A DNA stretch of 64,000 bases, taken from the NCBI GenBank assembly GCA_002394685.1, contig DGUP01000053.1, forward strand, positions 14,767 through 78,766. Reading direction: 5' to 3'. Source of the stretch: Treponema sp. UBA4307 (GTDB taxonomy: Bacteria; Spirochaetota; Spirochaetia; Treponematales; Treponemataceae). Made by a program: the position numbers and the translations under genes. Below are positions 23,309 to 43,988 of the stretch, piece by piece. The notes beneath the pieces were generated by a model. The model was not told the origin of the DNA, did no database searches, and worked only from the letters and a program-made list of their open reading frames with translations. How positions within the stretch are numbered: position 1 is the stretch's first letter; each line of letters begins with the position of its first letter.

Positions 23309-23350
23309 GGTCGGCGCTCACTACGTTTCAAATCCAAGTTTTGTTTAACA
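23309..23350. repeat. 42-bp partial copy of the tRNA-linked repeat unit
   Basis: Identical to 24323-24364 and one mismatch versus 24122-24163. Confidence 0.9.
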
Positions 23351-23701: not shown

Positions 23702-23924
23702 TTTTAGTCAGTTCCCTCCAGGAATCAAGTGTAGCACCACAATAAGCTGTCTGCTCATTCTCTGGAATCTTTGAATATATTGCAGCAAGTTTTTCAGATA
23801 TGTCTTCTGATTTTCTTGACTTAGCTTTTGCCTCATGTAAAAGGAATTGGACAAAATGCTCTACTTGCTCATAATATTCTTTTGGTAAAGACTTAATCTG
23901 TTTTTCCAAAACTTCGTATGGCAT
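23688..23924 (-). CDS. Putative antitoxin (DUF2281-like)
   Basis: Small gene overlapping the toxin start; LEKQIKSLP..QVEHFVQFL. Confidence 0.65.
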   Translation of the reverse strand: MPYEVLEKQIKSLPKEYYEQVEHFVQFLLHEAKAKSRKSEDISEKLAAIYSKIPENEQTAYCGATLDSWRELTKNDSW

Positions 23925-24017
23925 TCTGAACCTCCTTATTTTGTTTGATTATAACACATTTTGTAGAAAAAGACATAAAAAAAGGATTTACAATCTTAAA
24001 ATTGCAAATCCTCGTTG

Positions 24018-24418
24018 TGGGCCATCTTGGATTTGGCTTACAGTCGCAAACATCGTGTTTGCTCCTTCCAGCCCGACTACGTTCGCTGACGTGGCCATCC
24101 CTGGCCACTTTTCCTCCCGTAGGTCGGCGCTCACTACGTTTCAAATCAAAGTTTTGTTTAACAGGATTTTGTAAATAAAAAAAAAGACTATTGCGTTTAA
24201 CAATAGTCTTTGAGGTTTTGGGCCATCTTGGATTTGGCTTACAGTCGCAAACATCGTGTTTGCTCCTTCCAGCCCGACTACGTTTGCTGACGTGGCCATC
24301 CCTGGCCACTTTTCCTCCCGTAGGTCGGCGCTCACTACGTTTCAAATCCAAGTTTTGTTTAACAGAATTTTGTAAATAAAAAAAAGACTATCGTGTTAAA
24401 CAATAGTCTTTGAGGTTT
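24018..24418. repeat. Two tandem tRNA-linked repeat units (201 and 200 bp)
   Basis: 24018-24218 and 24219-24418 are near-identical. On the + strand each starts with TGGGCCATCTTGGATTTG, the complement of the last 18 nt of the tRNA. Confidence 0.95.
24384..24410 (-). terminator. tRNA intrinsic terminator (duplicated at about 24184-24210)
   Basis: Minus strand AAGACTATTG-tttaaca-CGATAGTCTT followed by a T-run. Confidence 0.75.
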
Positions 24419-24491
24419 TGGGCCATCTTGGATTTGAACCAAGGACCAAAGGATTATGAGTCCTCTGCTCTAACCGCTGAGCTAATGGCCC
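24419..24491 (-). tRNA. tRNA with CAT anticodon, most likely tRNA-Ile2 (lysidine-modified)
   Basis: GGGCCATTAGCTCAGCGGTTAGAGCAGAGGACTCATAATCCTTTGGTCCTTGGTTCAAATCCAAGATGGCCCA folds as a 73-nt cloverleaf with no encoded CCA. It lacks initiator features. Ile2 versus elongator Met is judged by resemblance only. Confidence 0.88.
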
Positions 24492-24503
24492 GATGTAGAA
24501 AAG

Positions 24504-24533
24504 ATTTTATCAGAAAACCGCTTTTTGCGTCAA
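24504..24533 (-). promoter_or_regulatory. Sigma70-type promoter of the intact tRNA
   Basis: TTGACG-N18-TAAAAT with TGn extension, 12 nt upstream of the tRNA. Confidence 0.6.
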
Positions 24534-24560
24534 TAAGTAGTATAGTAAAGCTAGTATTAG

Positions 24561-24782
24561 ACTAAAAAGGTATTTAGAAGAATTGGGAACGAAAACAGCA
24601 TCTCTGTGAATGAAGATGGCAAATTCATAAAAAAATCTGTTAAAAAACTAGAGCGTAAATATAAAAGTAATTTACTGATTGATGATAATATATTACCCGT
24701 AACAGAAAAAGGGGAATATATTATTATGCATACCGAAATTCTATCAAAATATGATAGTTTTTATTCAAAATGGTTTAAATAA
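24561..24782 (+). pseudogene. Start-less 73-codon 3' gene fragment of unknown origin
   Basis: Open frame between stops (…KSVKKLERKYKSNLLIDDNILPVTEKGEYIIMH…KWFK*) with no usable start near its 5' end. Confidence 0.35.
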
Positions 24783-24878
24783 TTAGTTTTCATATTCATT
24801 AATTATGAAAAAAACGGTTTGATAACTAACAAACCGTTTTTTTTAACTCCATCGAAAAAATGTTCAAAGGGTTAGCGA

Positions 24879-25754
24879 TTGGAGCTGCGCCGTAAACTTA
24901 AAAATTCAATTTGCGGATACAGTATTATTGTCCATAGGTTTTGTCGGTCAAATCCTAATTTCACAAGCAAGTTTGTAATGATTCCATTTGATGAAACAAA
25001 GTCTATGATAAGTCCGCAAATGATTACCATACCTATTCATAATACCTTCGAAATTGAAAATGCCATGACGGATATAATTCAAAATGGAGAGTCGGAAAAA
25101 CTCTCAAAATGGATTTCTCAGATTCCTGCTATTCGAGGAGGAACGATTGCACCGGACCAGCTTCGTCAAAGAAAGAATCTTTTTGTTGTAACAGCAACTC
25201 TTGCCTCTCGGGCGGCTATTAGAGGTGGACTCGATATTAATGATGCATTCACCTTGAGTGACTCATATATTCAAAAATCAGAATTAATCAACAATCCATC
25301 TGCAATCACCAATCTTCAGTATCATATGCTTATAGATTTTACAGAAAAAGTTGCACAGCTCAGAAATGGAGAAAACACTACAAAACTATCGGTAAAAGTT
25401 GCCAATTATATACAACAACATATTTCAGAAAATATTGATGCTGAAGAAATGGCCGCAGAATTAGGATTCAGTCGTCCTTATCTTTCCAAAAAGTTTAAGG
25501 AAACAACTGGAAAAACACTTACCGATTATATTCAGACAAAAAAAATCGATGAAGCAAAGCGTCTCTTAAAATATTCTGATAAATCCCAGAATCAAAAGAC
25601 CTCCGAGAATTGTTTTTGTGGATGGAATCTCTCCTGCAAAAATTATTACCCAGACAGGATTCAAAACAGGTTCCAGCATTGTGATAAAAGATGTAGTAAG
25701 TGCACGTACATTTCTGATTCCTATCGAGTAGAGAATGGAAGAAATGCCTATTGA
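24879..25754 (+). pseudogene. Truncated AraC-family regulator with chimeric C-terminus
   Basis: ELGFSRPYLSKKFKETTG..AKRLLKYSDKS is the first AraC HTH. The second HTH is replaced by antisense of a transporter fragment. There is no clear start or RBS. Confidence 0.75.
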
Positions 25755-25892
25755 AACAATTCCTACAAGAAGCAGGAATAAAGATGATTTCAAATTTGGA
25801 ACTCCACTTTGAATTACAAAAGGCAAGCAGACTATTGCTGTAATCAGAGAAATAAAATTTAAAACAACAAAGGCTTGCTGGTAATCCAACAA
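25566..25892 (-). pseudogene. EamA/DMT transporter 3' fragment
   Basis: LYSIGIRNVRALTTSFITMLEPVLNPVWV..GEIPSTKTILGG; N-terminal half absent. Confidence 0.75.
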
Positions 25893-25935
25893 GCCGATTT
25901 TTTTATGTTGTAGTACTTTTTCAAGAGATTATTAC

Positions 25936-27705
25936 TTAAATTCCCATCAAATAGTCTTCCACGTTTTTATACTGAATGCCATTTTCTTCAGAGTAACTTT
26001 CTCCGCGATATAGCACAACTTTTTCCAGAATTTTTCCGTATCTGAATTCTGTCTGCTTACAATTATCTTCGTTAATCAGATGGCGGTACTGGAACGGTGA
26101 TTTTTCTTTACTGTGCTTTATTTCGTAAATCTTACAGCAGACATTTTCAGAATCATAAACGACCATATCAAATTCTCCAACTGCAAACTGTAGCTTAAAT
26201 ACTTCAAGATTTTGATTTGCTTTTTTTGTTTCAAGCTGAACAATTTCTTCAAGCATGCGTCCTTTTATATCATCAAGGATTCTTTCCGTAATTCGCTTTC
26301 GTTCCTGAGCATCAACATTCTTAAAAGTTTCATCCATCATCAGAGATTTAATTAATGACTCGGCCTGAGAATAGCGTAGACCTGGTTGGCTAAACACGGT
26401 TGTAACTTTTTTGCTGTGCAAATCATTCATGTCTACGAGAGGAATATCACATGTTAAATCCAATAAATCAAGATATTCTTTTATCTCCAGTCGATGAGCA
26501 TTCTGAATATCAATTTTCTGTTCTTCCTGGTTCAGAATTCTCAGCAATTTCTTTAAGCGCTCTGTGATTTTTTCGCCATCAGCATCATCAAGAATATCCG
26601 TAGGATTTTCACGGTCCTTTCGCATTATATCTTTTGCACTACCAAAGTAATGCGATTTAAAAGCTTGTGTAAGAACTTCAATCGTGAATTCGTGATTCAT
26701 ATCTTCGACAATTCTATTTATGGCACTGGTAAGTTCACCTTTATCATAAAGTGACTTTAGATTTCTGAAATGACTTCCATACTGATAGTTTTTAAGTGAG
26801 TGCTGGATATTTCGAGCAATAGCTGTATTAACATAATCAGCTGTACTTTTCTTTGTTCCAAATATTCCCTTGTTGTAATTGTCTCCGCTTTGGCTCATGG
26901 TTCCGCCAAATTCCATGTACTGATCAATATCATGTATGCCCAATACATTTGAAAATTCACGGAAAGGGATAAAGGTTGTGTGAAGCAAAATACATCTGTC
27001 GTAAAGCTGCTCATCTTCTGAAAAAACAAAGCCTAGAGAATCTGTTCCTGAAAGCACAATTTTCATTCCGCTGGAAGCAAAAACATCGGAAAATAAAGCT
27101 GCACCTTGTATATAATCGTCCATCATTGTTACTTCATCAATGAATACGTATTTATATCCAAGAGTCTCTAGCTTTCGTAAATCTTTATTTACATCAGCAA
27201 GCGTGTTTGTAGGATTAATCTGAATAAAGACAGTTTTATTTCTGTCTTCGTCATTCATGTTATAAATAATCTGGCGAATCAAGGTTGTTTTTCCTGTTCG
27301 TCGCAAACCATACAGGATGAAAACTTTGTCATGAGAATCGCTATATACATATTGTTCGAGCGCAGAATATAATTCTCGTTTCTTGTAATCCTTAATTGAG
27401 GCAGCGAAATCTTCCAGCGTTTTTCCAATTCTTACATCAGTAATAAAAGTTGGAGCTTCTTCCTGCGCTTCTGAAGTATCTAGGTTTTTATGAATTTTAA
27501 GATTTGACAATTGTGTTTGCAGGGACTTTCTTTCTTCAATCTGCTGTTTCAGATACTCGTGTTCATCTTCTTTGACAATGCGGGAACGCTGTTTACCATT
27601 CTCAGTCCATTGATAGTAAGTATAAGCCTTACCCCTGATTGTTTTTGTAGTAAGACCACCAGATGGAAGAGAGTCGATTTTTTTTAGGATTTCTTCTGCA
27701 TTCAT
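25936..27705 (-). CDS. AAA ATPase with C-terminal PD-(D/E)xK-like region
   Basis: YGLRRTGKTT, FIDE, GEFDMV..IYEIK; N-terminal YYQWTENGKQRS module. Confidence 0.8.
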   Translation of the reverse strand: MNAEEILKKIDSLPSGGLTTKTIRGKAYTYYQWTENGKQRSRIVKEDEHEYLKQQIEERKSLQTQLSNLKIHKNLDTSEAQEEAPTFITDVRIGKTLEDFAASIKDYKKRELYSALEQYVYSDSHDKVFILYGLRRTGKTTLIRQIIYNMNDEDRNKTVFIQINPTNTLADVNKDLRKLETLGYKYVFIDEVTMMDDYIQGAALFSDVFASSGMKIVLSGTDSLGFVFSEDEQLYDRCILLHTTFIPFREFSNVLGIHDIDQYMEFGGTMSQSGDNYNKGIFGTKKSTADYVNTAIARNIQHSLKNYQYGSHFRNLKSLYDKGELTSAINRIVEDMNHEFTIEVLTQAFKSHYFGSAKDIMRKDRENPTDILDDADGEKITERLKKLLRILNQEEQKIDIQNAHRLEIKEYLDLLDLTCDIPLVDMNDLHSKKVTTVFSQPGLRYSQAESLIKSLMMDETFKNVDAQERKRITERILDDIKGRMLEEIVQLETKKANQNLEVFKLQFAVGEFDMVVYDSENVCCKIYEIKHSKEKSPFQYRHLINEDNCKQTEFRYGKILEKVVLYRGESYSEENGIQYKNVEDYLMGI

Positions 27706-27713
27706 GCCTATAT

Positions 27714-27764
27714 TGTAACTTATGTAACTTAGTTGCGCAAGTTAATTAAGTTACATAAGTTACA
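27714..27764. promoter_or_regulatory. Perfect 18-bp inverted repeat overlapping the ATPase promoter
   Basis: TGTAACTTATGTAACTTA-N15-TAAGTTACATAAGTTACA; overlaps TTGCGC-N17-TACAAT on the minus strand. Confidence 0.75.
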
Positions 27765-27917
27765 CACAGAAGGTTTACCTGGGAGTTTTGTTTGAATATG
27801 GTATTTTTTGCCGATATATTTTATCGAGTATAATCGACAGATAACCATTTAAGTTGTCGAATACAGTCGACATTATTTGTTACCAAAATTGTATAGTTTT
27901 GGTAACATTTTCGCCGA

Positions 27918-29168
27918 TTAAAACTTAAAGCAATTTTCCATACGTATCATATTAGATCGAGGAATTCCGATTTTTTCAGCCACAGATTTCCATTGTCTTA
28001 TATTCTGTTTTATATCATCTGTAATTTTTGAAGCTTCATCCTTTTTTATTTCAAAATACTTTGCAGCCTCAATTGCTACATCAAAGCTCAAAGAATTATC
28101 CATGTCATCAATGTTTAGTGACAATCCAACACCATCAGGATTTGGATTTACATCATACATCGGAGAAAGCCTTAGTCCTTTCTGATCAAACAAGAATCCG
28201 TGGTTTCGTAAATGATCATCTGTATTTGTAACTGCGATGCTGAATACAATTCTTTTCCACAGTTCAAGAAGGTCCTCTTTTGTTTTTGAACCTTGCTGCT
28301 GTATGCACTGCACTATATCAAGATAACTTGTTCCATCTTGAGCATTATTTCCGTCAATCTTGCCAAGAGCCGTCATTGCTGAAATAAAATGGATGCGTTT
28401 ATCCTCTGAGGTGCGGTCAAATCTCTTAACAAGAAATGTACTTCCGTTTTTAGAAAATCTTTCACATTTTGCTTCTGGAACATTCAACCCGCACAAGACC
28501 GCTAACTCATGTGTTACCATTTCCCAGGCACCGGAATCTATTTCATCATGTCTTGATGGAAATTTTGCAATCCATAAACTGCCGTCAGGTGCTTGTACAG
28601 TAGCCTTTGGCCTTGCTCCGCCTAATGATGAACCTGGCTGAATCAGCATTTGTATTTTTTCCTTTTCTTCTTCAAGTGTAATATCTTCTTTTTCCAAAAG
28701 ATATGAAGCCTGTTCAAGTTCACGTATTGAGGTCCATATTGGAATTGAGTTCTTAGAATCCTCTGCTAAAAAAGGGCCGTCCAGCTCAGTTTTAAATCTT
28801 AATGCGCCCATTCTGGAAATATCTTGTATTCCAATCAGAAAATCACTTTCCATAAGTTTCTTTGGGGCTCTGTTTTCTTCTTTTGCCTCAATGGCTTCTC
28901 TGCGAGTCATTAAAAGTCGACCCCATCTGTCTGGACAAGAATCTGTAAAGAATCCAAACAATTCTTTGTTCTGCTGTGTATACTGACGACCTTTATATAA
29001 CTGTAAATCCGGATCAAAAAAAGAGAACTGCTGCGTTTGTAACCATTCTGTATCATACTCAAATGAAAAGATTTCTTTTCCCTTGAGCAAATCAACATTT
29101 AAAACACCTATAAGGGTAGGCTGCACCAGAGATTCCCAATCACCATATACAAAAATGTTTTTACTCAT
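27918..29168 (-). CDS. HipA-domain kinase toxin
   Basis: N-terminal FSFEYD..PDRWGR; SSLGGARPKA, WIAKFP, NTDDHLRNHGF, LSPMYDVNP. Confidence 0.9.
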   Translation of the reverse strand: MSKNIFVYGDWESLVQPTLIGVLNVDLLKGKEIFSFEYDTEWLQTQQFSFFDPDLQLYKGRQYTQQNKELFGFFTDSCPDRWGRLLMTRREAIEAKEENRAPKKLMESDFLIGIQDISRMGALRFKTELDGPFLAEDSKNSIPIWTSIRELEQASYLLEKEDITLEEEKEKIQMLIQPGSSLGGARPKATVQAPDGSLWIAKFPSRHDEIDSGAWEMVTHELAVLCGLNVPEAKCERFSKNGSTFLVKRFDRTSEDKRIHFISAMTALGKIDGNNAQDGTSYLDIVQCIQQQGSKTKEDLLELWKRIVFSIAVTNTDDHLRNHGFLFDQKGLRLSPMYDVNPNPDGVGLSLNIDDMDNSLSFDVAIEAAKYFEIKKDEASKITDDIKQNIRQWKSVAEKIGIPRSNMIRMENCFKF

Positions 29169-29492
29169 TTATTTGTCCTTTTTATCCTTAGGCGCGCGCT
29201 TCCTTGTAACCAGCTTCAAATCCTGCAATTTTCTGCCTAATTCATCATCTTTTGCAACTAACAGCATATCCTTTTCAAGTCCCAATGAATTAAGAACCGA
29301 CATATATATACCCATTGCAACTGACGGTGAACCTTTTTCAACATTTACAAGTGTAGCTCTGCTAATTCCAGCCCGTTCTGCGATAAGTTCACTTGATAAA
29401 CCTCTTCTTAAACGAGCCAGTTTGATGTTTTCACCTAATTCTGTTAAAACCTTCTGAACCGAAGGCAATAAAACAACAGCATTCTTTCCCAT
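29169..29492 (-). CDS. HTH antitoxin (HipB-like)
   Basis: LGENIKLARLRRGLSSELIAERAGISRATLVNVEKG; abuts hipA; start refined to ATG 29492. Confidence 0.85.
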   Translation of the reverse strand: MGKNAVVLLPSVQKVLTELGENIKLARLRRGLSSELIAERAGISRATLVNVEKGSPSVAMGIYMSVLNSLGLEKDMLLVAKDDELGRKLQDLKLVTRKRAPKDKKDK

Positions 29493-29547
29493 AACATCTA
29501 TAATTATATACATAAATTAAATATTTGTATATAAATATAGACATTAT
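29491..29547. promoter_or_regulatory. Imperfect inverted repeat operator of the HTH-HipA operon
   Basis: Core arms 29497-29512 and 29526-29541 match at 15 of 16 positions. Confidence 0.55.
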
Positions 29548-29643
29548 AGAAAGTGTTTTTACTGTTTTTCCTGCTATAAAATAAAGCTGTATAGTCCAAT
29601 AAACAAAATTTCACAAAAATTGTATATCAGACTAAACAATTTT

Positions 29644-30825
29644 CTACTCAAACAGCCTGTTAGCCGCTTCCATGGCTGGCTTTACGGCCTCAACCATCTC
29701 AGAAATTGCTGCACGTGTATAATGGTCCGTCATAGCAAGGCTATTGTGTCCTGCAATTTTCTGAACTGTTTCTCCGGCAACCTCGCGACGCATACGGGTA
29801 ATGTATGTGTAACGCAAAGAATGTGGAGTAAGTATCCTGTTTTCTGCATTGATTCCTGACATGCCAAGAATGCGTCTGAACCATTCCTCGGCAAGCCGTT
29901 TACGGATTGGCTTTCCGTAACGCATAAATACGTAATCGTTACCGCTCAAATTGTTTTGCAAAATGTAATTCCGCATAATCTGAGCAAAGTCTTCCGGTAG
30001 AGGAGCAACACGAAGCTTTTTATCATCCTCAGAACCGCATTTGTTGTAATTTGTACGGTAAAGTTGATTTGATTTGTAAAATCCATCAATAACCAGGATT
30101 CCTTCATCGAACAGAAATTGCCGAGCCTGAATTGCAATTCCTTCGCTGATACGAAGCCCGCATTTTGCACAGCACAAGAACATAAGATAAATTGCTTTAT
30201 GACCTTCATCAAACTGTGGATGCTTGGAGTAGTGATTACGACTCATATCCATCCAAAGGCTTTCGTTGAATAAAATGTTCAGTTCTTCTGTTGAAATAAT
30301 ATCTTTCTTACGACTGTTACGACGGAATTTTGGAAACAGAGGAACAGGAATGTACGGCAAATCATGGAACGGAGCTTCCGCATAAACTTCACTTACCACC
30401 GTAAGAAAGTTGTTTTTCCAGCTGCCTGAATGATAATCCTCGGAAAGAAAATCAATAATCATCGGAATCGTAAGCTTTGATAATTCCAGTTCTCCAAATT
30501 CTTCCACAAAAATATTAAGCATAAAGCGTTTTGAAAGGAGTGTTTCCGGTGTAAGAGTTTTACCCAGCTTCTCCATCCGCTCCATGTGCGGTCCGCCGGG
30601 AATATACATCCATTCGGCAATCTTCGCTATCGTGATTTTCTCTTCCACGAATAACGGTGGCAGGGTAGAAACAAAAGCGTATGCCTCTACTCGAGTCTTG
30701 CAGCCTTTGCAGACTTTCTGACGCATTACACCCGTAATAGGATCATTCCAATAGTAATACCACTTGTGTACTGTCTTGTTCTTTGATTTAGTTGATTTTT
30801 TGAAGATGTGATAATTTAAATCCAT
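29644..30825 (-). CDS. int: Tyrosine recombinase/integrase
   Basis: GLRISE, HSLRY, AGHN and DHY catalytic residues; N-terminal WYYYW arm-binding-like domain; GGAGG RBS before 30825. Confidence 0.9.
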   Translation of the reverse strand: MDLNYHIFKKSTKSKNKTVHKWYYYWNDPITGVMRQKVCKGCKTRVEAYAFVSTLPPLFVEEKITIAKIAEWMYIPGGPHMERMEKLGKTLTPETLLSKRFMLNIFVEEFGELELSKLTIPMIIDFLSEDYHSGSWKNNFLTVVSEVYAEAPFHDLPYIPVPLFPKFRRNSRKKDIISTEELNILFNESLWMDMSRNHYSKHPQFDEGHKAIYLMFLCCAKCGLRISEGIAIQARQFLFDEGILVIDGFYKSNQLYRTNYNKCGSEDDKKLRVAPLPEDFAQIMRNYILQNNLSGNDYVFMRYGKPIRKRLAEEWFRRILGMSGINAENRILTPHSLRYTYITRMRREVAGETVQKIAGHNSLAMTDHYTRAAISEMVEAVKPAMEAANRLFE

Positions 30826-30965
30826 ATAAGCCTCCAAGTTGTTATGTTAAGCACTTGATATTCGCTTAACATTTTCAACAACCTGAAGGTCAGATTAATT
30901 AGTAAATGCTTGTATTATATAGATTTAGCACCTATCCCGAAGTGCCAAATCTTAATTGGTCTCTA

Positions 30966-31026
30966 GATTTGAACCAAGGACCAAAGGATTATGAGGCCTC
31001 TGCTCTAACCGCTGAGCTAATGGCCC
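30966..31026 (-). pseudogene. Disrupted 5' copy of tRNA-Ile2 (att site)
   Basis: tRNA nt 1-61 with an anticodon-stem mismatch. The 3' T-strand and acceptor strand are replaced by TAGAGACCAAT. Confidence 0.85.
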
Positions 31027-31042
31027 GATTTAGGTAGAGCAC

Positions 31043-31072
31043 GCTATATCATAGAAGGCTTTGCTTAGTCAA
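31043..31072 (-). promoter_or_regulatory. Sigma70-type promoter before the disrupted tRNA copy
   Basis: TTGACT-N18-TATAGC with TGn extension. Confidence 0.5.
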
Positions 31073-31114
31073 TATAGACACGTGCCGGGTGTATAGGTGA
31101 GTTTTGTGTGAAAT

Positions 31115-34091
31115 TTAAAGCTTCAAGATTTCCGCTTCAATTGCCGAAGCAATTTTATTATCAACGATTCTCATGCAACATTCTTCATTTTCTGTATAAC
31201 CTAAAAAGTTGATATTGCCGTACCACATAATTTTTTCATCAATAATTGTAATCTTCTGGGAAATATTTTCCTGTTCTATAACTTTTATACCAATGTTCTC
31301 AAGCATACTTATGCAAGGAACTATTTTTTTCTGCTTTGCATCATCATCCTGTTTACGTACAAGAATTTGAATATTAACCCCTTTTACAAGAAGCGTTGTA
31401 GCACTCAAAACAAATTCCTGTACATTTACTTTCGAAAGATATGGAACACTAATAATGATTTTTGAAGCAGCTGATAAGATGTCTTTTTGAAAATCTGATT
31501 TGTAATCTTCTGCGGAATATAATTTAGATTCTGTTTGTATTTCTGCATTTTCAGAAATATTTTGTTTTATAGAATAACCAAGATGTCTATAACCTTTCAG
31601 ACGATTCTGATACATTCTATCAAAAACAGGAATCCGATAATCAACATAATCAAAAATTTGAACTTCATTTTTGCCAGCAAAGTTTCTGTGTAAGCGTCCA
31701 CAATACTGAACTAAAGTTCCCTTCCAGCTAAAAGGCATTGCGAGCATTAAAGTATCAATACGAGGATAATCAAAACCTTCGCCCGCGTATTTTCCTGTTG
31801 CAAGAATTATTAATGATTCATCTGCTGGGACAGCTTTCAGTTTTTCAAGGGTTTCATTCTTTTGTTTTTGGGTACCACGGCCAGTTATGAAAATGACATT
31901 TTGTGCTGAATCAGAAAGTTTTTCATATAAGATATTCAAATGCTCAATTCGTTCCGACAAAATCAGAGGAGTACGTCCGTCCTTTACAGCATTTTTTACA
32001 TCTGCAATTATCAGTTCGTTACGAGTTGAATTAGAAATAAGTTTATTGATTTATTGAAGGATTTTTTGATTCCGTAAGCTCCGGTACATAATGAAAACTG
32101 GAAAATCTCGGAATAAAATAATGTGCAAAATCCTGTGCTGCATTCATCTGTTTTGTTGTAGTAGAATATAAAACAGAACCACATTGATAAAAAATAATTT
32201 TCTGATGGCCATCACGACGAATTGGAGTTGCAGTAAGTCCGTAAACATATTTTGCCTTGAAACTTGCAACAAGATTTTCTGTAGAAAAAGCAGAGACGTG
32301 ATGACATTCATCTACAATCAACATGCCGTATTTATATGAGCGAGGCCTAAGTTCATCAGAACCTTTTTCAATCAAAGAATTTACAATAGCAATATCAACT
32401 ATCCCAGTTGACTTATCCTTTCCAGCTGCAATTGTCCCTGATGTTATATCAAGAAATTGTTTTATTGCTTTCTTCCACTGTTCGAGCAAAGCGTGTGATT
32501 GAACAAGTATCAGCGTATTAACATTACGCTCTGCAATTAAAGCAGAAGCTACAACTGTTTTTCCAAATCCAGTTCCAGCTGATAAGATTCCAACATCTTC
32601 TTTCAATAACGCTTTTAAAGCACCTTTTTGTTCATCATAAAGTTTTCCAGTAAATTGTAAATCAATTTGTTGCCCTGTTTCGCGTTCATCTGTGATTTCA
32701 TATTTGGCATTTGCTTCTTCAAGCTTTTCAATCACCTTTGTAAGATTTCCTCGAGGAAGCAAGAGATAATCATAATTTTCTTTTGAGCAATCAATGTATC
32801 TGGGAATGTTATAAAGAGGCAGATGCATCCGCAAGTTTTTGAAATACTCTGGATTAAGAAAAACAGCTGTACGGCGTAAAACTCCCAATGCTTTTTCTGA
32901 TATACCAGTCTTCTGTATTTGTACATAATTAGAAAGTACAATTTTGACCAGAGCAGAAAAATCAGATTGATTTAAGGATTCTTTGTTATTTGCAGGAATA
33001 TTGACTTTCGAATTGCTTTGTTTAGTTTGAAGTTCAGATTCATCTTTTTCTACAAAGTCTGGAAGTGACTTTTCAATTTCATTTATGGTTTTTCGTACAA
33101 GTCTTTCTGAGATTTTTTGTACTGAGGATAAGAAAGCCCATTGATCTTCGTAAGGCACAAAAATTTCATCAACAAAAACAGAGTGGCCGTCTTTTACAGC
33201 CTTCCCCTGTAATGGAAGGGCAATAAGATTTCCATATCCGCCTTTAGGAATTTCATCCTGATTTGGAAAAAATCTATCAAAGCTTTCAAATGGAATTGAA
33301 TGTCGTTTTTGCATTGCGGCTTTTATAACTGCAGTTCCAAGCCCTCTTGCTAGTCTTGCAGAAATTATTTCATCAAAGAAAATCCATAGATGTCCGCCAT
33401 TACCGGAGCGTGATATTTCTATATAGCTTTTAATTCCAAAATCAGAACAGGTTCTCTGAGCGGCAAGAATATCGTCTCTCCAAGTATTTTGATTCTTAGC
33501 TCCATGTGCGTACGTCGCTATCGCTCCGTTTGTATGAGAGGAAATTATTGACATTTGCGCCTTCGGCGCATGCGCATCAAAATCCATCGCAAGAAACTTA
33601 CAGAGATTTCCATCAATAAGAGGATAAAGTCCGATGACATCGCGGGAAAACTCGTCACGACCTGCGAGATGATTGTAAATGTAATTATCAGTCAACAACA
33701 CTGGTAATTTGAAAGGACAAGTCGCACAGGAATATTTCTTCAAGTCACATTTTCCAGAAGCCCACTTATTTCTGCAGACTGGAGAATAACCGCTTTTATT
33801 AGATTTAGAATTGAACCAGCGAAGTGCAAAAACATCTTGTCTGCCAGAAAACAAAGATTTAAATAAATCGATTTTTTGTTGTGGAGTGCTATGCCGATTG
33901 ATTGCAGGTGTTGAATTAAAAAGAGTATCTGCCACAGGGAGTATTGGCTTGTTTTGTTCGGAGAGAACCGGAAGAGCATTTTGTTTCTCTGTCAGATAAA
34001 TTCTAACTTCTTTATTTATATCAGACAAGTCTATCAGTAGAGAAATCAGATTTTCCTTAGATAAGGTTGAAAGATATTCTTTTAAGTCCAT
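31115..34091 (-). pseudogene. Frameshifted AEP primase-like / SF2 (DEAD/ResIII) helicase / PLD-like protein, split into 32043-34091 and 31115-31960
   Basis: FLAMDFD, SRSGNGGHLW, GTGFGKT, DECHH, GLTATP, ATGKYAGEGFD, QYCGRLHR, KITIIDEKIMWYG. After the stop at 32045-32043, the +1 frame continues KLISNSTRNELIIADV. Confidence 0.8.
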
Positions 34092-34099
34092 TTTCTATA

Positions 34100-35536
34100 C
34101 TATAAATTTACAAACAAATCATCCAACAAAACCTGACTGGAAATCCTCTGACTGTACATGTTCAACTTAACGCCGTAAGTTGTTACAAAAGTCAATTGAA
34201 TAACCTTTTTTGTTCCAGTTGTACTTTGGAATTTTGAAATCTTTCGGCGAATATCCTGATCATAGTTTTTGTCAATCACATATTCATCATTAACAAATTT
34301 CATCTCACATATATTGATAACACGGTCTCTTCGGTCTATGAGCATATCAATTTGAGCACCTTCACTTTCTTCATCACCCTGAACAAACCATGTAGAAACG
34401 TTTGCAAGAACACCTGAAATTCCTATTTTCTGCTTAATCTGTCTTATATGATCTTTACACAACTGCTCAAAGGTAAATCCAGCCCAAGATTTTCTTGCCT
34501 GATTATCAAGTGTATTGGACCAGAAGTGTTCATCTTTACCAGCATTTTCTTTAACAAATTTAAAATAGAACATAGTATAAAAATCAGCTAGCTGATATTT
34601 TGTCTGTCTTTTTTTATTTCCATAAAATGGATATTCACGAACAAAACCAGAATCAACCAGATTTTTAATCATCTTTGTCAAAAGTGAATTATCACTTAAT
34701 TTTGATTTCTCAACAAGTTCTTTTCTTGAAAACCCAATTCGCTTTTCTGAAAGAACTTCTACAATTTTGATATAGGCTTCACTGTTAGTAAATAATGTAT
34801 TATACAGATGTTCAAATTCATCCCACAAAGCAGCTCTCTTTTTGAAAAACAGATTATCAATATTTGCACTGTATGGAATGGAACCTTTCAATAAATTTAG
34901 ATAAAAAGGAATACCGCCAAGAATCATATAACATTCACAGATATCATAGCGTGACCAGTGAATATTTCGGGATAAAAGAAACTGCTCTGTTTCGTAAAGA
35001 TTAAAAGGTTCAAGATAGATGCGGCAATTCTGTCTGTTAAAAAGTCCACCCTTATTATGATCAATGTGTTCAATAAGCCAGGAAGTAGCAGAGCCGCATA
35101 CTATCAGCATCAGATTATTTTTCGAAGCTCCATAACTGTTCCAAAAATATTCAAAGGCTTCCAAAAATCCTGATTTATGGTTATCCAGCCAGGGCATTTC
35201 ATCAAAAAATATAACCTGTTTTTTATCGCGCGGTAAAGTATCTATGTAATCCCTTAACTGAAAGAAAGCTTCTCTCCAGCTTTGCGGAACACTAACTTCA
35301 GTTTTTGATTTTCGTTTGAGTTCTTCATAAAAATTATAAAGCTGTTCTTCTTTATTTTGGTTATAATCACCAACAAGCTTAAAGGCAAATTGTTCATCAA
35401 AGATTTGATTTATGAGAAACGTTTTTCCTACACGTCTTCTTCCGTACAAAATTACAAGTTGAGATTCTTTAGATTCATAACACTCATTAATCTGCTCAAT
35501 TTCTTTTTGTCGTCCAATAATTAAATCTTTAGCCAT
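34100..35536 (-). CDS. ATP-binding protein (archaeal-type ATPase family) with C-terminal nuclease-like region
   Basis: IIGRQKE, YGRRRVGKT, FFDE, LGGIPFYL, QIDML..ICEMKF. Confidence 0.85.
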   Translation of the reverse strand: MAKDLIIGRQKEIEQINECYESKESQLVILYGRRRVGKTFLINQIFDEQFAFKLVGDYNQNKEEQLYNFYEELKRKSKTEVSVPQSWREAFFQLRDYIDTLPRDKKQVIFFDEMPWLDNHKSGFLEAFEYFWNSYGASKNNLMLIVCGSATSWLIEHIDHNKGGLFNRQNCRIYLEPFNLYETEQFLLSRNIHWSRYDICECYMILGGIPFYLNLLKGSIPYSANIDNLFFKKRAALWDEFEHLYNTLFTNSEAYIKIVEVLSEKRIGFSRKELVEKSKLSDNSLLTKMIKNLVDSGFVREYPFYGNKKRQTKYQLADFYTMFYFKFVKENAGKDEHFWSNTLDNQARKSWAGFTFEQLCKDHIRQIKQKIGISGVLANVSTWFVQGDEESEGAQIDMLIDRRDRVINICEMKFVNDEYVIDKNYDQDIRRKISKFQSTTGTKKVIQLTFVTTYGVKLNMYSQRISSQVLLDDLFVNL

Positions 35537-35568
35537 AGCAATATAATAGCACTGGTTATTAAAGAATG

Positions 35569-35625
35569 CAATTATTACCTGCGGTTATCTCACATTTTTA
35601 TCGAGATAACCGCAGGTAATAATTG
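35569..35625. repeat. Perfect 23-bp inverted repeat with 11-nt loop
   Basis: CAATTATTACCTGCGGTTATCTC-N11-GAGATAACCGCAGGTAATAATTG. Confidence 0.9.
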
Positions 35626-35925
35626 TTCTCCGCTCATTGTAAGAATCTTATCCAGATGCTCTGCCCAATCTTTCATTGTCATAGGCTGCTGACGTTCTGC
35701 CTGACGTTCTGGAAAATAGAGATATCCAGAAACAATCTGTCCAAGAACACGTAGTTCTTTTTCATTAAGGCAATTCTTTGCAATAACAGCATCTTTTAAG
35801 TGAGGCTTTGTTCCTTCAAAAGTTTTAAGTCCCATGAATTCTTTTTCAGCATCAGCTCGATTATAAATAACTTCGGCAGCAGTTTGACCATGAACAGCAA
35901 AATGCAATGACTCGTGGATAAGCAT
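35590..35925 (-). pseudogene. Internal fragment of RhuM-family virulence protein
   Basis: LHFAVHGQTAAEVIYNRADAEKEFMGL, AKNCLNEKEL, MTMKDWAEHLD; both ends missing. Confidence 0.8.
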
Positions 35926-36021
35926 TTTATGAGTTATGGAGAGTCATTCCATGAGTATTAGACAATTCTAATGACAAAATTTACCTTGTCCACGGATGAC
36001 TATTACCAGAACATTGCCACA

Positions 36022-39000
36022 TTATTCTGTTCCAAGTGCTTCAAGTGTCTTAGATGTACCGTCATAGAAAGTAACAGTTGCTGTGATAGGAAGCGGATTA
36101 GCTCCAGTGCCTCGCCACTCCGAACCAAAATCAATAGACTTCCATTGAGTTTCCGTACACTGACTGTTATCTTTATAATTAATATTGGTTACGCTCTTGC
36201 ACGACCTAAAAGCACCAGCACCAATGCTTGTTATTTTTCCTTTTATAGTTATTGTTGTTATTCTTGTGCAACCTGACAACAAAGTCGCAGGAATTGATGT
36301 AATTTTCGAAGGCACTGTAAAGGAAGTCAAACCTGAACACCCCATAAACGCGCCTGCTCCAAGGCTTGTAAGGTTTTCAGGAAGAGTCACAGACAACAAC
36401 ATAGTTGCCTGCTTAAAAGCAGCCTTTCCAATGCTGGTAACAGAAGAAGGAATGTTTATAGACATAATATTGGTACTACTAAACGCATTATCTCCAATGC
36501 TTACCAACTTTGAGTCATTAGGAATTGTAACGTCACCAAGAGGGCAACCTTGGAAAGCCCCATCGCCAATGCTTGTGACGTTGCTTGGAATAGATATGGA
36601 AGAAAGATTAGTCAAATAGAAAGCATTCTTTCCAATTGATGCAATGCTTGTCGGAAGCGAAACCCCCGCCAAGTTAATACAGTTGCTGAATGCGGAGTCA
36701 GGAACTTTATTGTCGCTAAAGGTAGTCTTACTCAAGTCAATGGTTACCATTGTACCCGTGGAATAAGATTCATACAATTGTGTGAACGCAGAACGCATAT
36801 TGCTTAAGGCATCTTCCGTCACCGTGCCACCGTTAACAACAATTTTAGCAGTCGTTGTGCCGGCTGAAATGCTGTTAATCACGCTTTCCAAATCAGCAGG
36901 AGTTTCCGCAAAATAACCTTCCTGAACGAATCCATTACTGTCAATATAATAGCCGGTTGTTGCAAGTGCAAATTTCTTGTAGTTATCGCTGACTTTCTCT
37001 CCTCCGAGAACCTGTCTGTTTGCCGCATAACTTGGTAGTTTTATCGTTGCAACAGGAGCAGTTCCTTCAAGATTGCCTGGAATTGTTATTGAAGAAACTG
37101 ATGTTCCTTCGAGATATACTTCATTTTCTTTTACAACAACAGCTCCACCACTCATTTTAAATATTGCATCATTTGAAGCTCGAACAAGAACGCCCGCTCC
37201 GTTACCTGTAGCACTGCACGAGTTCGGCTTAGTGCTTGATCCTATTGAGCCACCCTGCATGTCAAATGTTCCTTCAAACAGATATACACCACCACCAGAA
37301 GAAGCAGAATTATCAAGAATGCTTGCACTGCCTTTCAGTGTAAATATACCTGCATTCATATAAACGCCACCGCCAGATGTGTCTGTTGCAGTGTTTCCAC
37401 GGATACTGCCATCAGTCATTGTAAATGAACCTGATACCATGAAAACGCCACCGCCATTTGCAGCACTATTTTTATACAAAGCACCACTAGAAGAACCTAT
37501 CATTCCGTTTCGCATATCTACGGTTCCTGAGTTATAGATTCCGCCACCATTTCCTGATGCTGTATTTTTGTAAATATTTCCTGATGAATTGTTGAAACTT
37601 GCTTGTTTTTGTCCTGGATTCTCTCCAGTAAACTGGTATGTATATCCAATATAAAGATTTCCTCCATTAAAAATACCACCACCAATTTTTGCTTCATTCT
37701 GACTTACAGTTGATTTTCCACCTATGTAGAAAGAAGCGCTTGCTGCATTAAAAATTGCTCCACCATTACCAGCTGTACCAGCTTTGTTAGTTGCAAAATA
37801 TCCATCATAAGAGCTTACTGAACCTAAGTTGTAAAGCCCTGCACCGTCACAGCTAGAAGTTTTGAAAGTATTGCTTGTAATCTGAACGCTGTTTTTCAAA
37901 TCAAGTTTTCCACTTGAACCTACATAAATTCCGCCGCCCTTATCTGCCTTACAGTCTGTTACAACAACATTATTTAGAGTTATAATTCCTGCAGAAACAT
38001 TAAGACCACCGCCATTCTCAGCACTTCCTTTCCTTATAGTAAGATTTTTAATTGTGACAGGAATATTTTTTCCGATTGCGACAACACTTGAAGTACTGTA
38101 GCTTGAGTCAGTTCCATTTCCGCCGTTAAGAACATTATTTCCTGCAGTTGAAGTTGCACCTTCTATTGAAAGAGATGCAACTGCACATGAACTTCCCAAT
38201 TCTCCTGTAGTATTGTTTACAACACCGTCTACATAAATCTTATAATCACAAGAACTGTCGGTAAGCTCTGTAAATGCCTTTGAAAGACTTTGATACGGAG
38301 CAGATTTCGTTCCGCGTCCGCTCGTATCGCTTGGAGCACCTGTACATACATTTCTTGTTCCCGTAGAAGCCACATAGATCGGGCTGTCGATGCGGACTTT
38401 GCTTGAGCTGTCTGTAATATTTTTTTCCCAGTCGCTGTCTGAGAGTTCAAATCTTTCTACAATTGCATCGGTTAATCCGCTTCCAGAAAGTATTGGACTT
38501 CCGCGCCTCCAGGTCTGAGTTGTTATGGTTGCAACTGTTCCGTTTCCTGTGAGGGTGCCTACCTGGATTGTAGCCTGTTTCCAGGTGCCTGAATCCTTGA
38601 TGTTCTGAAGCATGATGTCATTTTTGCCTTCACCTTTTTCTGTTCCGTCTGTAGTTGTAATTCCGTAAGGAATGACTGCGCTGCCGCTGATTTTAAAGTT
38701 TCCGGTTGAATCTACATAAGCTGCGCCGCCACCTGCACCGCTTGCTTCGTGAACTGTAACTTCATTGTCATAAATCTTTCCGCCGGACATTTCAAAGCTT
38801 CCGTTGCTGCAAACATAAACACCGCCGCCCTGAACGTGGCCCATGTTACCGCCGACTTTTACAGCAGAGTTACCGGAGATTTCCCCGCCTGTCATTACGA
38901 CCTTTGCATAATTTTCTGCATAAACGCCAAGACCAACAGCATCCAGACCTGCATTTCCCTTTGCAATGAAATTATGATTGTTTGTAATTTTAGCACCGGC

Positions 39001-40335: not shown

Positions 40336-40343
40336 CTTTCTCC

Positions 40344-43300: not shown

Positions 43301-43988
43301 CAATGTACAAATCTTTTGTATCTGCCTGATGAACAGTTCCGCTTAAATTTTTAATGTTGAAACATGCTACAAGATGAGCAGTTTTGCCAGAATTATTTGG
43401 AACCCCCTGGTCACGCTGAATTACAGCTCCCCGCATTCTTGGAGGTGCAGAGTTTACTGCAAGTTCCAGATGATATGGCTCAAATACGCGTTCTGTTTCT
43501 TGTTCAACAATTTTAATTGTACCCGAAATGTTTTTCTGTATGTTACCAGTTGGATTGCCCTCTTCGTCAAGTTCCTGAACTGCCCCCATCTCCAGTTCGT
43601 GGAGAAAGTCGTGGCTAAAGGTCATTGTCATTGATTTACCGTCTTCTGACTGCATAAAAGAGCAGACAGAGTCGGCCTGGAAACGCATGGCTACTTCCTT
43701 ATGGTCAAATTCATACGAAAAAATAAGTTTATAGTGCTGGGGATTTCTAAGGTAAAAGGTTACAGTTTTATCTTCATTACTTTCAACGCATTCAATGCCG
43801 CTGATGTCTATTCCGATTGAATCCGTTTTAAAATCTTTGTCGATTGCTGCGGTCTCTGTGTATTTTACAAAAAAGCCCTCTAAGTCCAGATTAAAAAGAT
43901 CACAGGAAATTAAGGAGAAGGATAAAAATAAACATGTTGTCAGCCCAAACAGGGACTTCAATTTACTATATTTTTTTATACTAAACAT
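40344..43988 (-). CDS. Large surface lipoprotein with repeated YV..GND..G..P modules
   Basis: Lipobox LISC; FYVSKSGNNGSNNGSTKRPYRTI and FYVAADGNDHNSGTKESEPVKT; promoter TTGAAA-N17-TATAAT upstream. Confidence 0.8.
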   Translation of the reverse strand: MFSIKKYSKLKSLFGLTTCLFLSFSLISCDLFNLDLEGFFVKYTETAAIDKDFKTDSIGIDISGIECVESNEDKTVTFYLRNPQHYKLIFSYEFDHKEVAMRFQADSVCSFMQSEDGKSMTMTFSHDFLHELEMGAVQELDEEGNPTGNIQKNISGTIKIVEQETERVFEPYHLELAVNSAPPRMRGAVIQRDQGVPNNSGKTAHLVACFNIKNLSGTVHQADTKDLYIDNELYHIDFSSGSISITDSKGNTTGLKLSVTPPPALCHLDGSESVFTAGSSADGYLPLYYTTDIDADSEIASNTISYTIKLKDDANFSTSATVENVIDRLRPPSVNVTSTATDYSADDVTGTFDLVISHDGENYHNENGLEVGGSKIAKNPSISYEVYDQSGSVIAEGTKKAPVTVPVEIGKYYVKAYASCIGYIDSDYMADDEEHCASSANTFTVHRSANFYVSKSGNNGSNNGSTKRPYRTIQKCIDQIREIAENDPTDNNYSIILQSDITLDSSDTTETLADFTKTGVSSSDNLLYYLQGNGYTINAGGKNLAMKICAGTEVTLEDVTVKGAGIKVDSGVLNFADGNIKDITAENKGSALSAESGEIYLGTEGLVTISGNICNYEETPCAVYIGGDASLNIKNAVIYDNKDSDDNQRNLYLAKNGDDQIKVNISGQLTGSKIGINTESVPSPGNYITFTKAYGYKTGNNEGITPGTYFIGDVEGVGYDKSSGEAVLAQNGGNFKINFEEKITFALESMYVPYNTEKVMKVIVTKTETEETETRETVITDECTNFSYILTEYGSPVYTPDSTRSSFTMKKLGSGSYKLFVSCNYKNRSYSQELDVGIRDVDEFYVAADGNDHNSGTKESEPVKTFGYALKLFEDSGSTNFAAIHIKGNVNLGTLNTERTNTLSKTIPSLTIDSSTTASINGGTDTILNVTSQTAVIIKNVQLINNENSSAYALKLSNPNTKLTIQGKAALSKVYLADGACINTDSSLILPSDREDFALVTPERKYLGTKICEGDWTKFEKIKLTCTDVYQLETIPRYVNGEGRIGLGYEFIPTQDKPLPDLADEDIIGLINDGGTSIGGRRVWSGEQLCNAHANVGYDQERWAKMVGTTVVFRTNEWRYGVMTLNRVARETYKKKGKKHQIMRAYWHLRFIGEGQQYSQGMDSNNSDIDTGFHGTTGTTNDIHTGNGYAINGAAFYVLHYGNRWPANIDECSM

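Follow-up and report, generated by a model that had tools for sequence, protein, structure and literature searches.

A Treponema island at tRNA-Ile2(CAU) that appears to supply the promoter and 5' part of the gene it occupies

We analysed a window of 64,000 nucleotides from the gut bacterium Treponema sp. UBA4307 (assembly GCA_002394685.1, contig DGUP01000053.1), in which a direct repeat of 64-68 nt, covering most of a tRNA gene, brackets a 6.5-kb island. The features of the region are the following, with positions counted from the first letter of the window.

24014..24385, no strand: two 201-bp tandem units, each with an 18-nt tRNA 3' fragment (nt 56-73)
24383..24411, minus: intrinsic terminator hairpin, host side, directly 3' of the tRNA
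24419..24491, minus: intact tRNA(CAU), probably tRNA-Ile2 (ARAGORN and Rfam, 73.7 bits)
24431..24498, no strand: direct repeat copy 1, tRNA nt 1-61 plus 7 nt upstream (repeat search)
24492..24605, minus: promoter-A block, putative distal arm of the element (consensus scan and locus comparison)
24606..25918, no strand: segment absent from full-length relatives (Pfam and comparison)
24978-25754, plus: AraC-family regulator
25566-25892, minus: truncated EamA fragment
25936..27705, minus: AAA_14/DUF6788 ATPase cargo gene
27918-29168, minus: HipA-like kinase toxin
29169-29513, minus: HipB-like HTH antitoxin
29644..30825, minus: tyrosine integrase (int), 393 aa (Pfam Phage_integrase)
30826..30965, minus: int-proximal element arm, conserved in all relatives
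30966..31026, minus: dead tRNA-Ile2 5' fragment (nt 1-61) with A31->C, proposed attL remnant of the pre-integration resident gene
31027..31106, minus: promoter-B block, upstream of the dead fragment (homology to L042 and L006)
31115..43635, no strand: older accessory DNA upstream of promoter B

ARAGORN and Rfam call a single intact tRNA(CAT), at 24419-24491 on the minus strand. ARAGORN labels it tRNA-Met, going by the anticodon. Its best E. coli matches are genes annotated as tRNA-Ile (85% identity over the full length), and it is therefore probably tRNA-Ile2, the tRNA(CAU) required to read AUA codons. The other copy (30966-31026) adjoins the integrase gene, lacks nt 62-73, is not called by ARAGORN, and reaches only 31.6 bits with Rfam; its A31->C change disrupts the 31-39 pair of the anticodon stem. 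The repeat search aligns 24431-24498 with 30966-31033 (68 nt, 97% identity), with a continuous near-identical core of 64 nt that holds one mismatch. Because the other repeats in the 10 kb reach at most 29 nt at 72-90% identity, this one is far beyond chance. The first-pass annotation of this DNA had described a 64-bp repeat over tRNA nt 1-61 and 3 upstream nt, whose integrase-side copy had lost its acceptor 3' strand and carried an anticodon-stem mismatch. This description holds, except that the repeat is slightly longer. The arrangement is that of the 5'-fragment islands of Islander: an intact tDNA and a cognate fragment in the same orientation (both minus) bracket the island, the integrase lies inside the 6.5-kb interval (Islander takes 2-200 kb), and on the tRNA strand the 5' fragment precedes the island, which is followed by the intact gene.

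The two tRNA copies were said to have distinct promoters. The consensus scan found a sigma-70-like promoter A before the intact gene (TTGACG-N18-TAAAAT, 24533-24504), which is presumably active. The hexamers of promoter B (TTGACT-N18-TATAGC) are present before the dead copy but fail the -10 criterion of the scan. Homologous promoter-B blocks, with TAGTAT or TAAAAT as the -10, lie upstream of a dead copy in locus L042 and upstream of a variant tRNA in L006. The promoter-B block may be the distal arm of an older island. The accessory DNA behind it contains a split TOTE system, an ATPase_2 protein, a RhuM fragment, a BspA-like LRR protein and a 1214-aa ORF. Strain L030 lacks 19 kb, which correspond to this DNA and the island.

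The integrase matches PF00589 at 67 bits (cut-off 27.1) over residues 216-377, and the catalytic R, HxLR and Y are visible by eye in its translation (GLRISEG, HSLRYT, GHNSLAMTDHYT). The arm that separates it from the dead fragment starts with 'tagagaccaat', followed by a hairpin (ttggcacttcgggataggtgctaaa) and then 'ctatataatacaagcatttac'. In classical relatives, the tRNA 3' end fills the slot of 'tagagaccaat'. Here, the int-side copy has no nt 62-73 and the arm reads 'tagagaccaat' instead, which is not the classical, 3'-restoring configuration.

The cargo includes a pair that resembles type II HipBA at the sequence level (HipA_C kinase and HipA N-terminal domains, with an HTH antitoxin gene ahead) and an AAA_14 gene common to relatives (94.7% nucleotide identity in L071, 94% in L065, 83% in T. 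rectale). The AAA_14 homologue P0148 showed chromosomal contexts with no island. The segment at 24606..25918 stands in place of the repressor, the relaxase and part of the cargo, and marks a deletion or a composite junction. The terminal small ORF and the ~80 nt at the outer end of the arm are also missing from the window copy. A domain search found no relaxase gene in 24.4-31.0 kb, and the interval is thus not an integrative mobilizable element. Since the relatives L071 and L085 carry Mob_Pre, we regard the window copy as a truncated derivative. It is rearranged at about 25919, and hence its two repeats could stem from two different neighbouring elements; it presumably arose by internal deletion or by the fusion of two such elements.

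The first-pass annotation had proposed a survey of integrase homologues for the same geometry. Integrases 60-98% identical to that of the window occur in fifteen genome loci and in further metagenome contigs. All relatives with at least 66% identity and a recovered upstream junction (about 15 Treponema contexts) have tRNA nt 1-58/61, the conserved arm and then int, and in none does an intact tRNA adjoin int. The dead fragment of these close relatives always ends in ...GGTTCAA(A/G)TC, at which point the conserved arm starts ('tagagacc...'). The DNA upstream of the dead copy is host-specific: the copy follows the glmS stop codon in L046, L061, L068 and L071, and a GGDEF gene in L050, L066 and L085. 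L046 and L071 are not independent integrations: host flank and backbone are common to both, and most of the differences lie in the int allele and HipBA/AAA_14. One identical integrase protein, P0026, sits behind differing host sequences and differing host tRNA variants. In L051, L053 and L056, which are more distant relatives, it is the intact tRNA 3' end that exactly fills the 'tagagaccaat' slot. The full-length relatives L071 and L085 encode int, a CI-like repressor, an HTH_36 protein, a Mob_Pre relaxase and type I restriction-modification (R-M) cargo. In L045, L046, L048, L050, L061, L062 and L071, the 10 kb downstream of int contain no tRNA, and none of the full-length relatives was captured with both ends. 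An HsdM homologue, used to reach the far end of L071, led to an unrelated oral-treponeme locus and was ruled out. The T-loop/arm junction was also sought in viral contigs, with 0 matches.

At the far end, the promoter-A block is 84-95% identical in nine loci with unrelated host flanks, and L024 and L041 have diverged versions of it (65-74%). L027 and L086 have 5.9 kb in common between unrelated flanks (cargo, promoter block and tRNA; 94% identity), and their homology ends at the tRNA 3' end. The terminal 781 nt common to L074 and L030 (90%) have the same end point. The promoter-A side of the intact gene is thus mobile DNA, which moves with cargo among unrelated loci. With a reversed polarity one expects the cargo on the 5' side of the intact tRNA and housekeeping genes on its 3' side. 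L024 and L027 have serA/serC downstream of the tRNA and Mrr/HsdR-like or MoxR-VWA genes upstream; L016, L074 and L086 are likewise ordered. We rejected a native context for promoter A in L016, with glmS upstream of it, because glmS is downstream and convergent and the upstream gene is an HsdR-like cargo ORF. In L006, another occupant leaves just nt 52-73 on the same left flank, which indicates that the 3' side is the constant host side and that the breakpoint lies in the T-arm. A terminator matching 24383..24411 stands after the displaced tRNA 3' fragment in both L006 and L002. The fragments in the 201-bp units lie at 24018-24035 and 24219-24236, and L002 has the same unit with its 3' fragment and other cargo. 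These units resemble scars that classical-polarity integration would leave at the same T-loop; that they encode an SRP-like RNA was rejected, with no Rfam match.

Some genomes retain the far end of an element and no integrase gene. In the T. rectale isolate, a host MFS gene is followed by a 76-nt remnant of the int 3' end, AAA_14 and a small ORF, and then by the arm, promoter block A and an intact tRNA. Strain L030 has both chromosomal flanks of the window at 97-98% identity, promoter A and an intact tRNA. It could be taken for a true empty site, which would refute the first-pass proposal, but the 556 nt that adjoin its promoter A represent the terminal small ORF and the arm of an element also found in T. 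rectale (91% amino acid identity over the first 76 residues, 90% nucleotide identity over 781 nt). L030 is therefore a relic. Empty-site strains with the promoter-A upstream sequence had been named by the first-pass annotation as evidence against its proposal, and the apparent case of such a strain does not hold. No virgin attB was found; a look-up of the right-flank PLD protein, for an attB with promoter B, gave only the same context.

These comparisons suggest an explanation for the locus that we consider probable: 24431-31026 would be an integrated and partly decayed island that entered tRNA-Ile2(CAU) with reverse polarity, its attP bringing a promoter and the 5' part of the gene. It would belong to a family of Treponema islands whose full-length members are mobilizable (CI-like repressor, Mob_Pre relaxase and usually type I R-M cargo). 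Their tyrosine integrase would recombine in or beside the T-loop of the tRNA-Ile2(CAU) gene, in the polarity opposite to the usual one. The attP would comprise, in order, the cargo, an arm of ~110-190 nt with its own sigma-70 promoter, tRNA nt 1 to ~60, 'tagagaccaat' with the hairpin arm, and int. At attL, the resident promoter and nt 1-60 would be stranded upstream of int as a dead stump. At attR, the promoter and 5' part of the element would be joined to the resident nt ~61-73 and terminator, so that the working tRNA-Ile2 of the cell would be transcribed from element DNA. The gene at 24419-24491 would be this attR hybrid, with nt 1 to ~60 from the element and nt ~61-73 and the terminator from the resident chromosome. 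We infer both the recombination itself and its exact crossover point, the position of which is bounded. An attP with a promoter and tRNA 5' part and a crossover in the T-loop had been suggested from the window alone, and the recurring junction between dead fragment and arm supports it. The idea that the working tRNA depends on an element-borne promoter likewise gains support, from a block that moves with island DNA and from homology that ends at the tRNA 3' end. One observation is unpredicted by a strict T-loop crossover without later selection or gene conversion: the 5' T-stem half of the intact copies co-varies with the host 3' half (CTTGG/CCAAG in L027 vs CTAAG/CTTAG in L086).

The duplication could be an assembly artefact, with two strains joined via the tRNA, a concern raised by the first-pass annotation and by the nature of the source, a metagenome scaffold, and the Logan unitigs do break at the repeat. 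However, an independent JGI contig (L011) is 100% identical over window positions 31855-23169, spanning both repeats, and L012, a Logan contig of a different run, matches the window at 100% over 31026-24465. The junctions are thus confirmed, depth in the source run is even at ~42-47x over the region, the two tRNA copies differ at diagnostic positions, and isolate genomes show the same geometry. An artefact is virtually excluded. A Logan joint 31031->25915 in X3 was uninformative, its depth change reflecting the presence of AAA_14 at several loci. It is very unlikely that promoter A and its tRNA are native, and that the promoter-B stump is foreign, captured with the integrase from another genome, the island restoring nothing. 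Such a history would suit the integrase-free L030, given its matching flanks, and the wide occurrence of promoter A among related Treponema. Yet the 556 nt of L030 belong to a T. rectale-type element, the promoter-A block, 84-95% identical across most of the loci with unalignable flanks, moves with cargo, and it is the promoters next to dead copies that abut host genes and vary by host. The island would also be left without recombination sites, though the 64-nt repeat brackets it exactly.

The gene could also have been spared any fusion, if the element disrupts one of two tandem tRNA-Ile2 genes or carries a complete tRNA-Ile2 near its far end. In the latter version, which resembles tRNA-dependent lysogeny, one of the downstream 3' fragments, for instance 24219-24236, would mark the true junction. 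The other occupant in L006 indeed has a complete variant tRNA, then 250 nt, then the nt 52-73 fragment; the window has its two 18-nt fragments downstream of the intact tRNA; and the rearrangement at 25919 may have removed the real far end. However, the island DNA shared by L027/L086 and by L074/L030 ends at the tRNA 3' end with no later fragment, the 201-bp unit of L002 accompanies other cargo as a classical-polarity scar would, and no spare remnant of nt 62-73 lies between island and promoter A in the window, L074 or L086. We consider the absence of a fusion unlikely.

If integration did proceed with reverse polarity, its origin may be a switch, which we propose tentatively and as somewhat doubtful: an ancestral attP would have spanned the whole promoter-plus-tRNA unit, whose 3' part then decayed, leaving 'tagagaccaat' in its slot. 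Every new integration would then retire the prior promoter and 5' part, and islands would pile up 5' of the tRNA. An older island, including the TOTE-BspA segment, would have its far end in promoter B, and where int is lost, as in T. rectale and L030, an essential tRNA would be left with an element promoter for good. The match of T-stem halves between element 5' and host 3' parts would be a host-range filter, or the result of repair from the dead copy.

The transcription of tRNA-Ile2(CAU) has apparently passed to mobile DNA, permanently in some genomes. This bears on how reliance on an element-borne part of an essential gene stabilises islands with defence and toxin-antitoxin cargo. In these genomes, island boundaries will be misplaced by programs that look for a 3' fragment or count the promoter next to the tRNA as host sequence, and L030 is a general caution for empty-site tests, since a seemingly empty site can be a relic.

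The family resembles classical tRNA-targeting islands, for which Williams 2002 (NAR 30:866, cited in PMC4383910 and PMC1635311) is reportedly the reference, also for phages and for the T-loop sublocation, in its enzyme class, its target region (a T-loop flanked by the T-stem) and an int that adjoins one junction co-directionally with the tRNA; L051, L053 and L056 look classical. It differs in that the int-side arm of the window family does not rebuild the 3' end and the intact gene stands at the far junction. Full-length relatives such as L071 and L085 are like integrative mobilizable elements (integrase and Mob relaxase, no conjugation genes), unlike the window copy, which has lost the repressor and relaxase region. 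In the tRNA-dependent lysogeny of mycobacteriophages (Guerrero-Bustamante & Hatfull 2024), the common core spans ~10 bp and the tRNA is rebuilt at neither junction; a phage tRNA, separate and complete, complements its loss (PMC10865867). The likeness is that the int-side junction is non-functional and that the host depends on element DNA for an essential tRNA. The window, however, has no additional complete tRNA, its intact gene being at the junction and continuous with the host terminator and flank, and we propose that a 61-nt tRNA segment and promoter lie in attP, the gene being rebuilt at the far junction. For the L006 occupant, tRNA-dependent lysogeny may be a closer match.

The reverse-polarity geometry is rare and not unprecedented (PMC4383910; PMC6563490), 159 of 3919 Islander islands having a 5' tDNA fragment (PMC4383910, Table 1). 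In the literature searched, where Zhao & Williams 2002 was represented by its title and citing papers, we found no reverse-polarity family in Treponema or at tRNA-Ile2. Because the geometry is already known, what is gained is a new, well-documented family and not a new principle. As in the Islander 5'-fragment islands, a tyrosine integrase is present and an intact tDNA and its cognate 5' fragment bracket the island in direct orientation; since the fragment precedes the intact gene, the 5' part and the transcription signals have to come from the element. Beyond those islands, the Treponema loci add classical relatives with the tRNA 3' end in the arm slot and relics with a fixed promoter, and so provide a natural series on a change of integrase polarity, from classical relatives through reverse-polarity elements to fixed-promoter relics.

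The island lies between two copies of a direct repeat, one overlapping the intact tRNA gene and the other beside the integrase. The features of this region are listed below.

24419-24491, minus strand: intact tRNA(CAT), the sole intact copy in the window, called by ARAGORN and Rfam (73.7 bits)
24431-24498 and 30966-31033: direct repeat, 68 nt, 97% identical, spanning tRNA nt 1-61 and a few bases upstream
25936-27705, tRNA strand, between the repeats: AAA_14/DUF6788 ATPase gene
29644-30825, tRNA strand (minus), between the repeats: tyrosine integrase, 393 aa
Between the repeats, tRNA strand: HipB-like HTH and HipA genes
Between the repeats, tRNA strand: truncated EamA fragment
Between the repeats, strand opposite to the tRNA: AraC-family gene

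The first-pass annotation had called the tRNA a tRNA-Ile2, a reasonable label given its 85% full-length identity to E. coli genes annotated tRNA-Ile. It had also described a dead copy near the integrase. This copy (30966-31026, minus strand), hereafter the stump, indeed lacks nt 62-73, shows the anticodon-stem change A31->C, and receives no ARAGORN call (31.6 bits versus 73.7 for the intact gene). Of the two promoters it had proposed, promoter A (TTGACG-N18-TAAAAT), 5' of the intact tRNA, was picked up by the promoter scan; the hexamers of promoter B, upstream of the stump, are present in the sequence, but its -10 (TATAGC) fails the scan. The duplication could have been an assembly artefact. 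This is excluded, since two contigs, one from JGI and one Logan contig of another run, are 100% identical to the window across the junctions; together with the even read depth of the source run, they show that the island structure is real.

We surveyed relatives of the integrase in 15 Treponema genome loci, including the isolates T. socranskii ATCC 35535, T. bryantii NK4A124, and T. parvum, and in about a dozen metagenome contexts (exact-protein look-ups with two further alleles). Junctions were compared in the loci where the integrase is at least 66% identical and the upstream junction was recovered. All of them have the geometry seen in the window: tRNA-Ile2 nt 1-58/61, ending GGTTCAA(A/G)TC, precedes a conserved arm ('tagagaccaat', a hairpin, then 'ctatataatacaagcatttac') and the integrase, and none of them has an intact tRNA beside the integrase. 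The DNA upstream of the stump is host-specific and varies between hosts: the glmS stop codon is 35-80 nt from the stump in four loci (L046, L061, L068, L071), and three others (L050, L066, L085) have a GGDEF gene next to it. The same integrase protein (P0026) is found behind differing host sequences and differing host tRNA variants. These observations suggest that both the stump and the promoter in front of it belong to the resident DNA, so that the element would start in the T-loop region. In more distant relatives (L051, L053, and L056, a T. parvum remnant) the tRNA is complete and its last 12-13 nt fill the exact 'tagagaccaat' slot, which suggests that the non-restoring arm descended from a classical one, i.e., an arm that rebuilds the tRNA 3' end.

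The promoter-A block (24492-24605) is 84-95% identical among most loci carrying it (the versions in L024 and L041 are more diverged); no alignment can be made between the flanks of these loci. The L030 version resembles those of other species more than it does the window's. Accessory cargo lies 5' of the block, namely, Mrr and an HsdR-like ORF (L024, L016), MoxR-VWA (L027, L086), or ATPase-like genes (L041), and core genes such as serA/serC lie 3' of the tRNA. L027 and L086 have 5.9 kb of cargo, block, and tRNA in common at 94% identity; the homology ends at the tRNA 3' end, and their chromosomal flanks are unrelated. A T. rectale isolate shows, in order, a host MFS gene, a 76-nt 3' remnant of the integrase, AAA_14, a 110-aa ORF, an extended arm, the promoter-A block, the intact tRNA, and host DNA. 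By these comparisons, the promoter-A block behaves like island DNA.

When metagenomes were scanned with a pattern that fits either promoter junction, only promoter-A contexts came back, among them L030, a locus from the same species as the window. L030 1-10084 corresponds to window 55048-43636 (97-98% identity) and L030 10640-10976 to window 24605-24271, with only 556 nt, and no integrase, in between. This looks like an empty site with the 24492-24540 sequence, a pattern that the first-pass annotation had set against its own proposal and that is expected if promoter A were native and the stump captured with foreign DNA. We rejected the empty site because the 556 nt are an element terminus: they consist of the T. 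rectale-type small ORF (91% amino acid identity over the first 76 residues) and the extended arm. L030 is 90% identical to T. rectale over 781 nt, and the match stops at the tRNA 3' end. L030 is thus not a virgin site; it is what is left of an element's far end after loss of the integrase, of the stump, and of older accessory DNA amounting to 19 kb. A native promoter A, contradicted both by this relic and by the mobility of the block, is highly unlikely. It is also quite improbable that integration is non-restoring and offset by a second or cargo tRNA gene, because the tRNA 3' end is where homology stops and because spare 3' remnants are absent; for the rearranged window copy, this reading may hold.

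Two further differences separate L030 from the window. The right edge of the 19-kb variable segment (window 43636-43988, L030 9732-10373) lies inside a 1214-aa ORF (40344-43988) that has no Pfam match and adjoins a BspA-like LRR protein. L030 keeps only the first ~118 codons of this ORF, fused to element-terminus DNA, and the boundary is a deletion endpoint in a probable surface-protein gene. About 1.1 kb (window 47436-48519), with a 300-aa ORF (47594-48496, no Pfam match), is missing in L030; it is flanked by a ~339-bp duplication, and L030 6189-6527 matches both sides.

In the mechanism that we favour, attP would combine an arm that bears a promoter, about the first 60 nt of the tRNA, and the integrase-proximal arm. 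It would recombine with the resident gene within or close to the T-loop. The resident promoter and 5' part would be left stranded next to the integrase, and the resident 3' end and terminator would be fused to the promoter and 5' part of the element. The recurrence of stump and arm and the mobility of the promoter-A block support what the first-pass annotation had put forward, that is, an attP with promoter and tRNA 5' part, a T-loop crossover, and expression from the element's promoter. The crossover is limited on the 3' side by divergence past nt 60-61 and on the 5' side by host-specific variants kept in dead copies up to nt 50-52. L006, which has the same left flank as the window and another occupant, retains only nt 52-73 on the host terminator, which identifies the 3' side as the constant, resident one. 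One observation does not fit simply with a strictly T-loop crossover: the 5' T-stem half of intact copies varies together with the 3' half of the host (tRNA nt 49-65, L027 versus L086). In the pairs L027/L086 and L074/L030, islands are 90-94% identical and their 5' T-stem halves differ (CTTGG versus CTAAG), each fitting the 3' half of its own host. This requires another process and suggests selection, repair from the dead copy by gene conversion, or a compatibility filter at establishment.

In the full-length relatives L071 and L085, the order is integrase, (HipBA), AAA_14, CI-like repressor, HTH_36 protein, Mob_Pre relaxase, and type I R-M, after which the element continues. The match of the window to L071 (94.7%) extends from 31028 only as far as 25919; beyond it are the EamA fragment and the AraC gene, and the window's promoter block is without the outer ~80 nt and small ORF found in L030, L035, and L074. 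The window island thus appears to be a deletion derivative, or two adjacent elements fused. Promoter B, with about 80 nt 5' of it, has homologous blocks in L042 and L006. In L042, the promoter-B-type block is 3' of Mrr/HsdR-like cargo, and in L024 this cargo is next to a promoter-A-like block, an arrangement consistent with a stack of older islands 5' of the tRNA. Upstream of promoter B, a TOTE conflict-system gene (31115-34091; AEP-TOTE, ResIII, Helicase_C, and PLD domains) occupies two ORFs (32043-34091 and 31115-31960), probably split by a frameshift or stop. A truncated RhuM-family ORF (35590-35925, matching only profile positions 122-224 of 252) likewise points to the 31-44 kb segment being decayed mobile DNA.

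A conserved non-coding module of ~110 nt (L035 985-1095, L045 16949-17059, L046 17971-18075) lies 3' of the Mob_Pre relaxase region, directly before the cargo slot, in full-length elements and about 90 nt from the promoter-A block in L035; it may act as an oriT or mark the end of the backbone. The AAA_14/DUF6788 gene (window 25936-27705; L075-L084), with 7964 homologues below 1e-100, also occurs as a solitary insert (93% protein identity) in unrelated chromosomal contexts. Since L035 930-992 has the two ~40-nt flanks of this gene joined and the gene absent, the gene seems to be mobile as a unit by itself.

Two 201-bp tandem units (24014-24385, plus 23309-23350; 98% identical, no match in Rfam) lie 3' of the tRNA. 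Each contains 18 nt of the tRNA 3' end (nt 56-73), followed by the terminator, 42 nt of native downstream sequence, and an insert of 88 nt. L002 has one unit and L006 none. The units resemble scars that integration of classical polarity left at the same T-loop, the copy number changing via unequal crossing-over. Between these units and a 298-aa gene is a mazEF-like toxin-antitoxin pair (23363-23924; 112-aa PemK toxin and 78-aa partner), absent in L002 and L006; mazF is deleted (23322->23693) in two sequencing runs (X2, X5). A repeat of ~66-75 nt ('...gcgcaaa(c/t)gtcaataa(c/t)ttcc...aaacggagc...gacgta...') is found at window 33511-33585, L027 5899-6030, L024 2268-2600, and L042 6737-6816. It is in tandem just 3' of tRNA-Ile2 in L024 and L027, where each copy ends in ATGGCCCA, the tRNA 3' end; the related window copy lies within the AEP-TOTE ORF.

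In tRNA-dependent lysogeny, non-restoring integration is compensated by a phage tRNA (PMC10865867). The occupant of L006 (938-1330), which is of the same species as the window, may be the counterpart of this in a bacterial island. Its tRNA(CAT) is a complete variant that has a promoter and terminator of its own and compensatory changes in the T-stem (GTTTG/CAAAC) and acceptor. This tRNA lies 250 nt from the displaced resident nt 52-73 fragment, and L055 has the same tRNA/spacer/fragment module 5' of a 44%-identical integrase. As for the reversed polarity of the window island, the oddity claimed by the first-pass annotation was overstated. With reference to Zhao & Williams 2002 and to cases in archaea, PMC6563490 describes the 5'-distal part of tRNA genes as a considerably less frequent partner in recombination than the 3' part, and Islander counts 159 islands with a 5' tDNA fragment versus 3760 with a 3' fragment (PMC4383910, Table 1). 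We found no description in the literature of a Treponema family of this type; the island family is new and well documented, and belongs to a kind that is itself known and rare.
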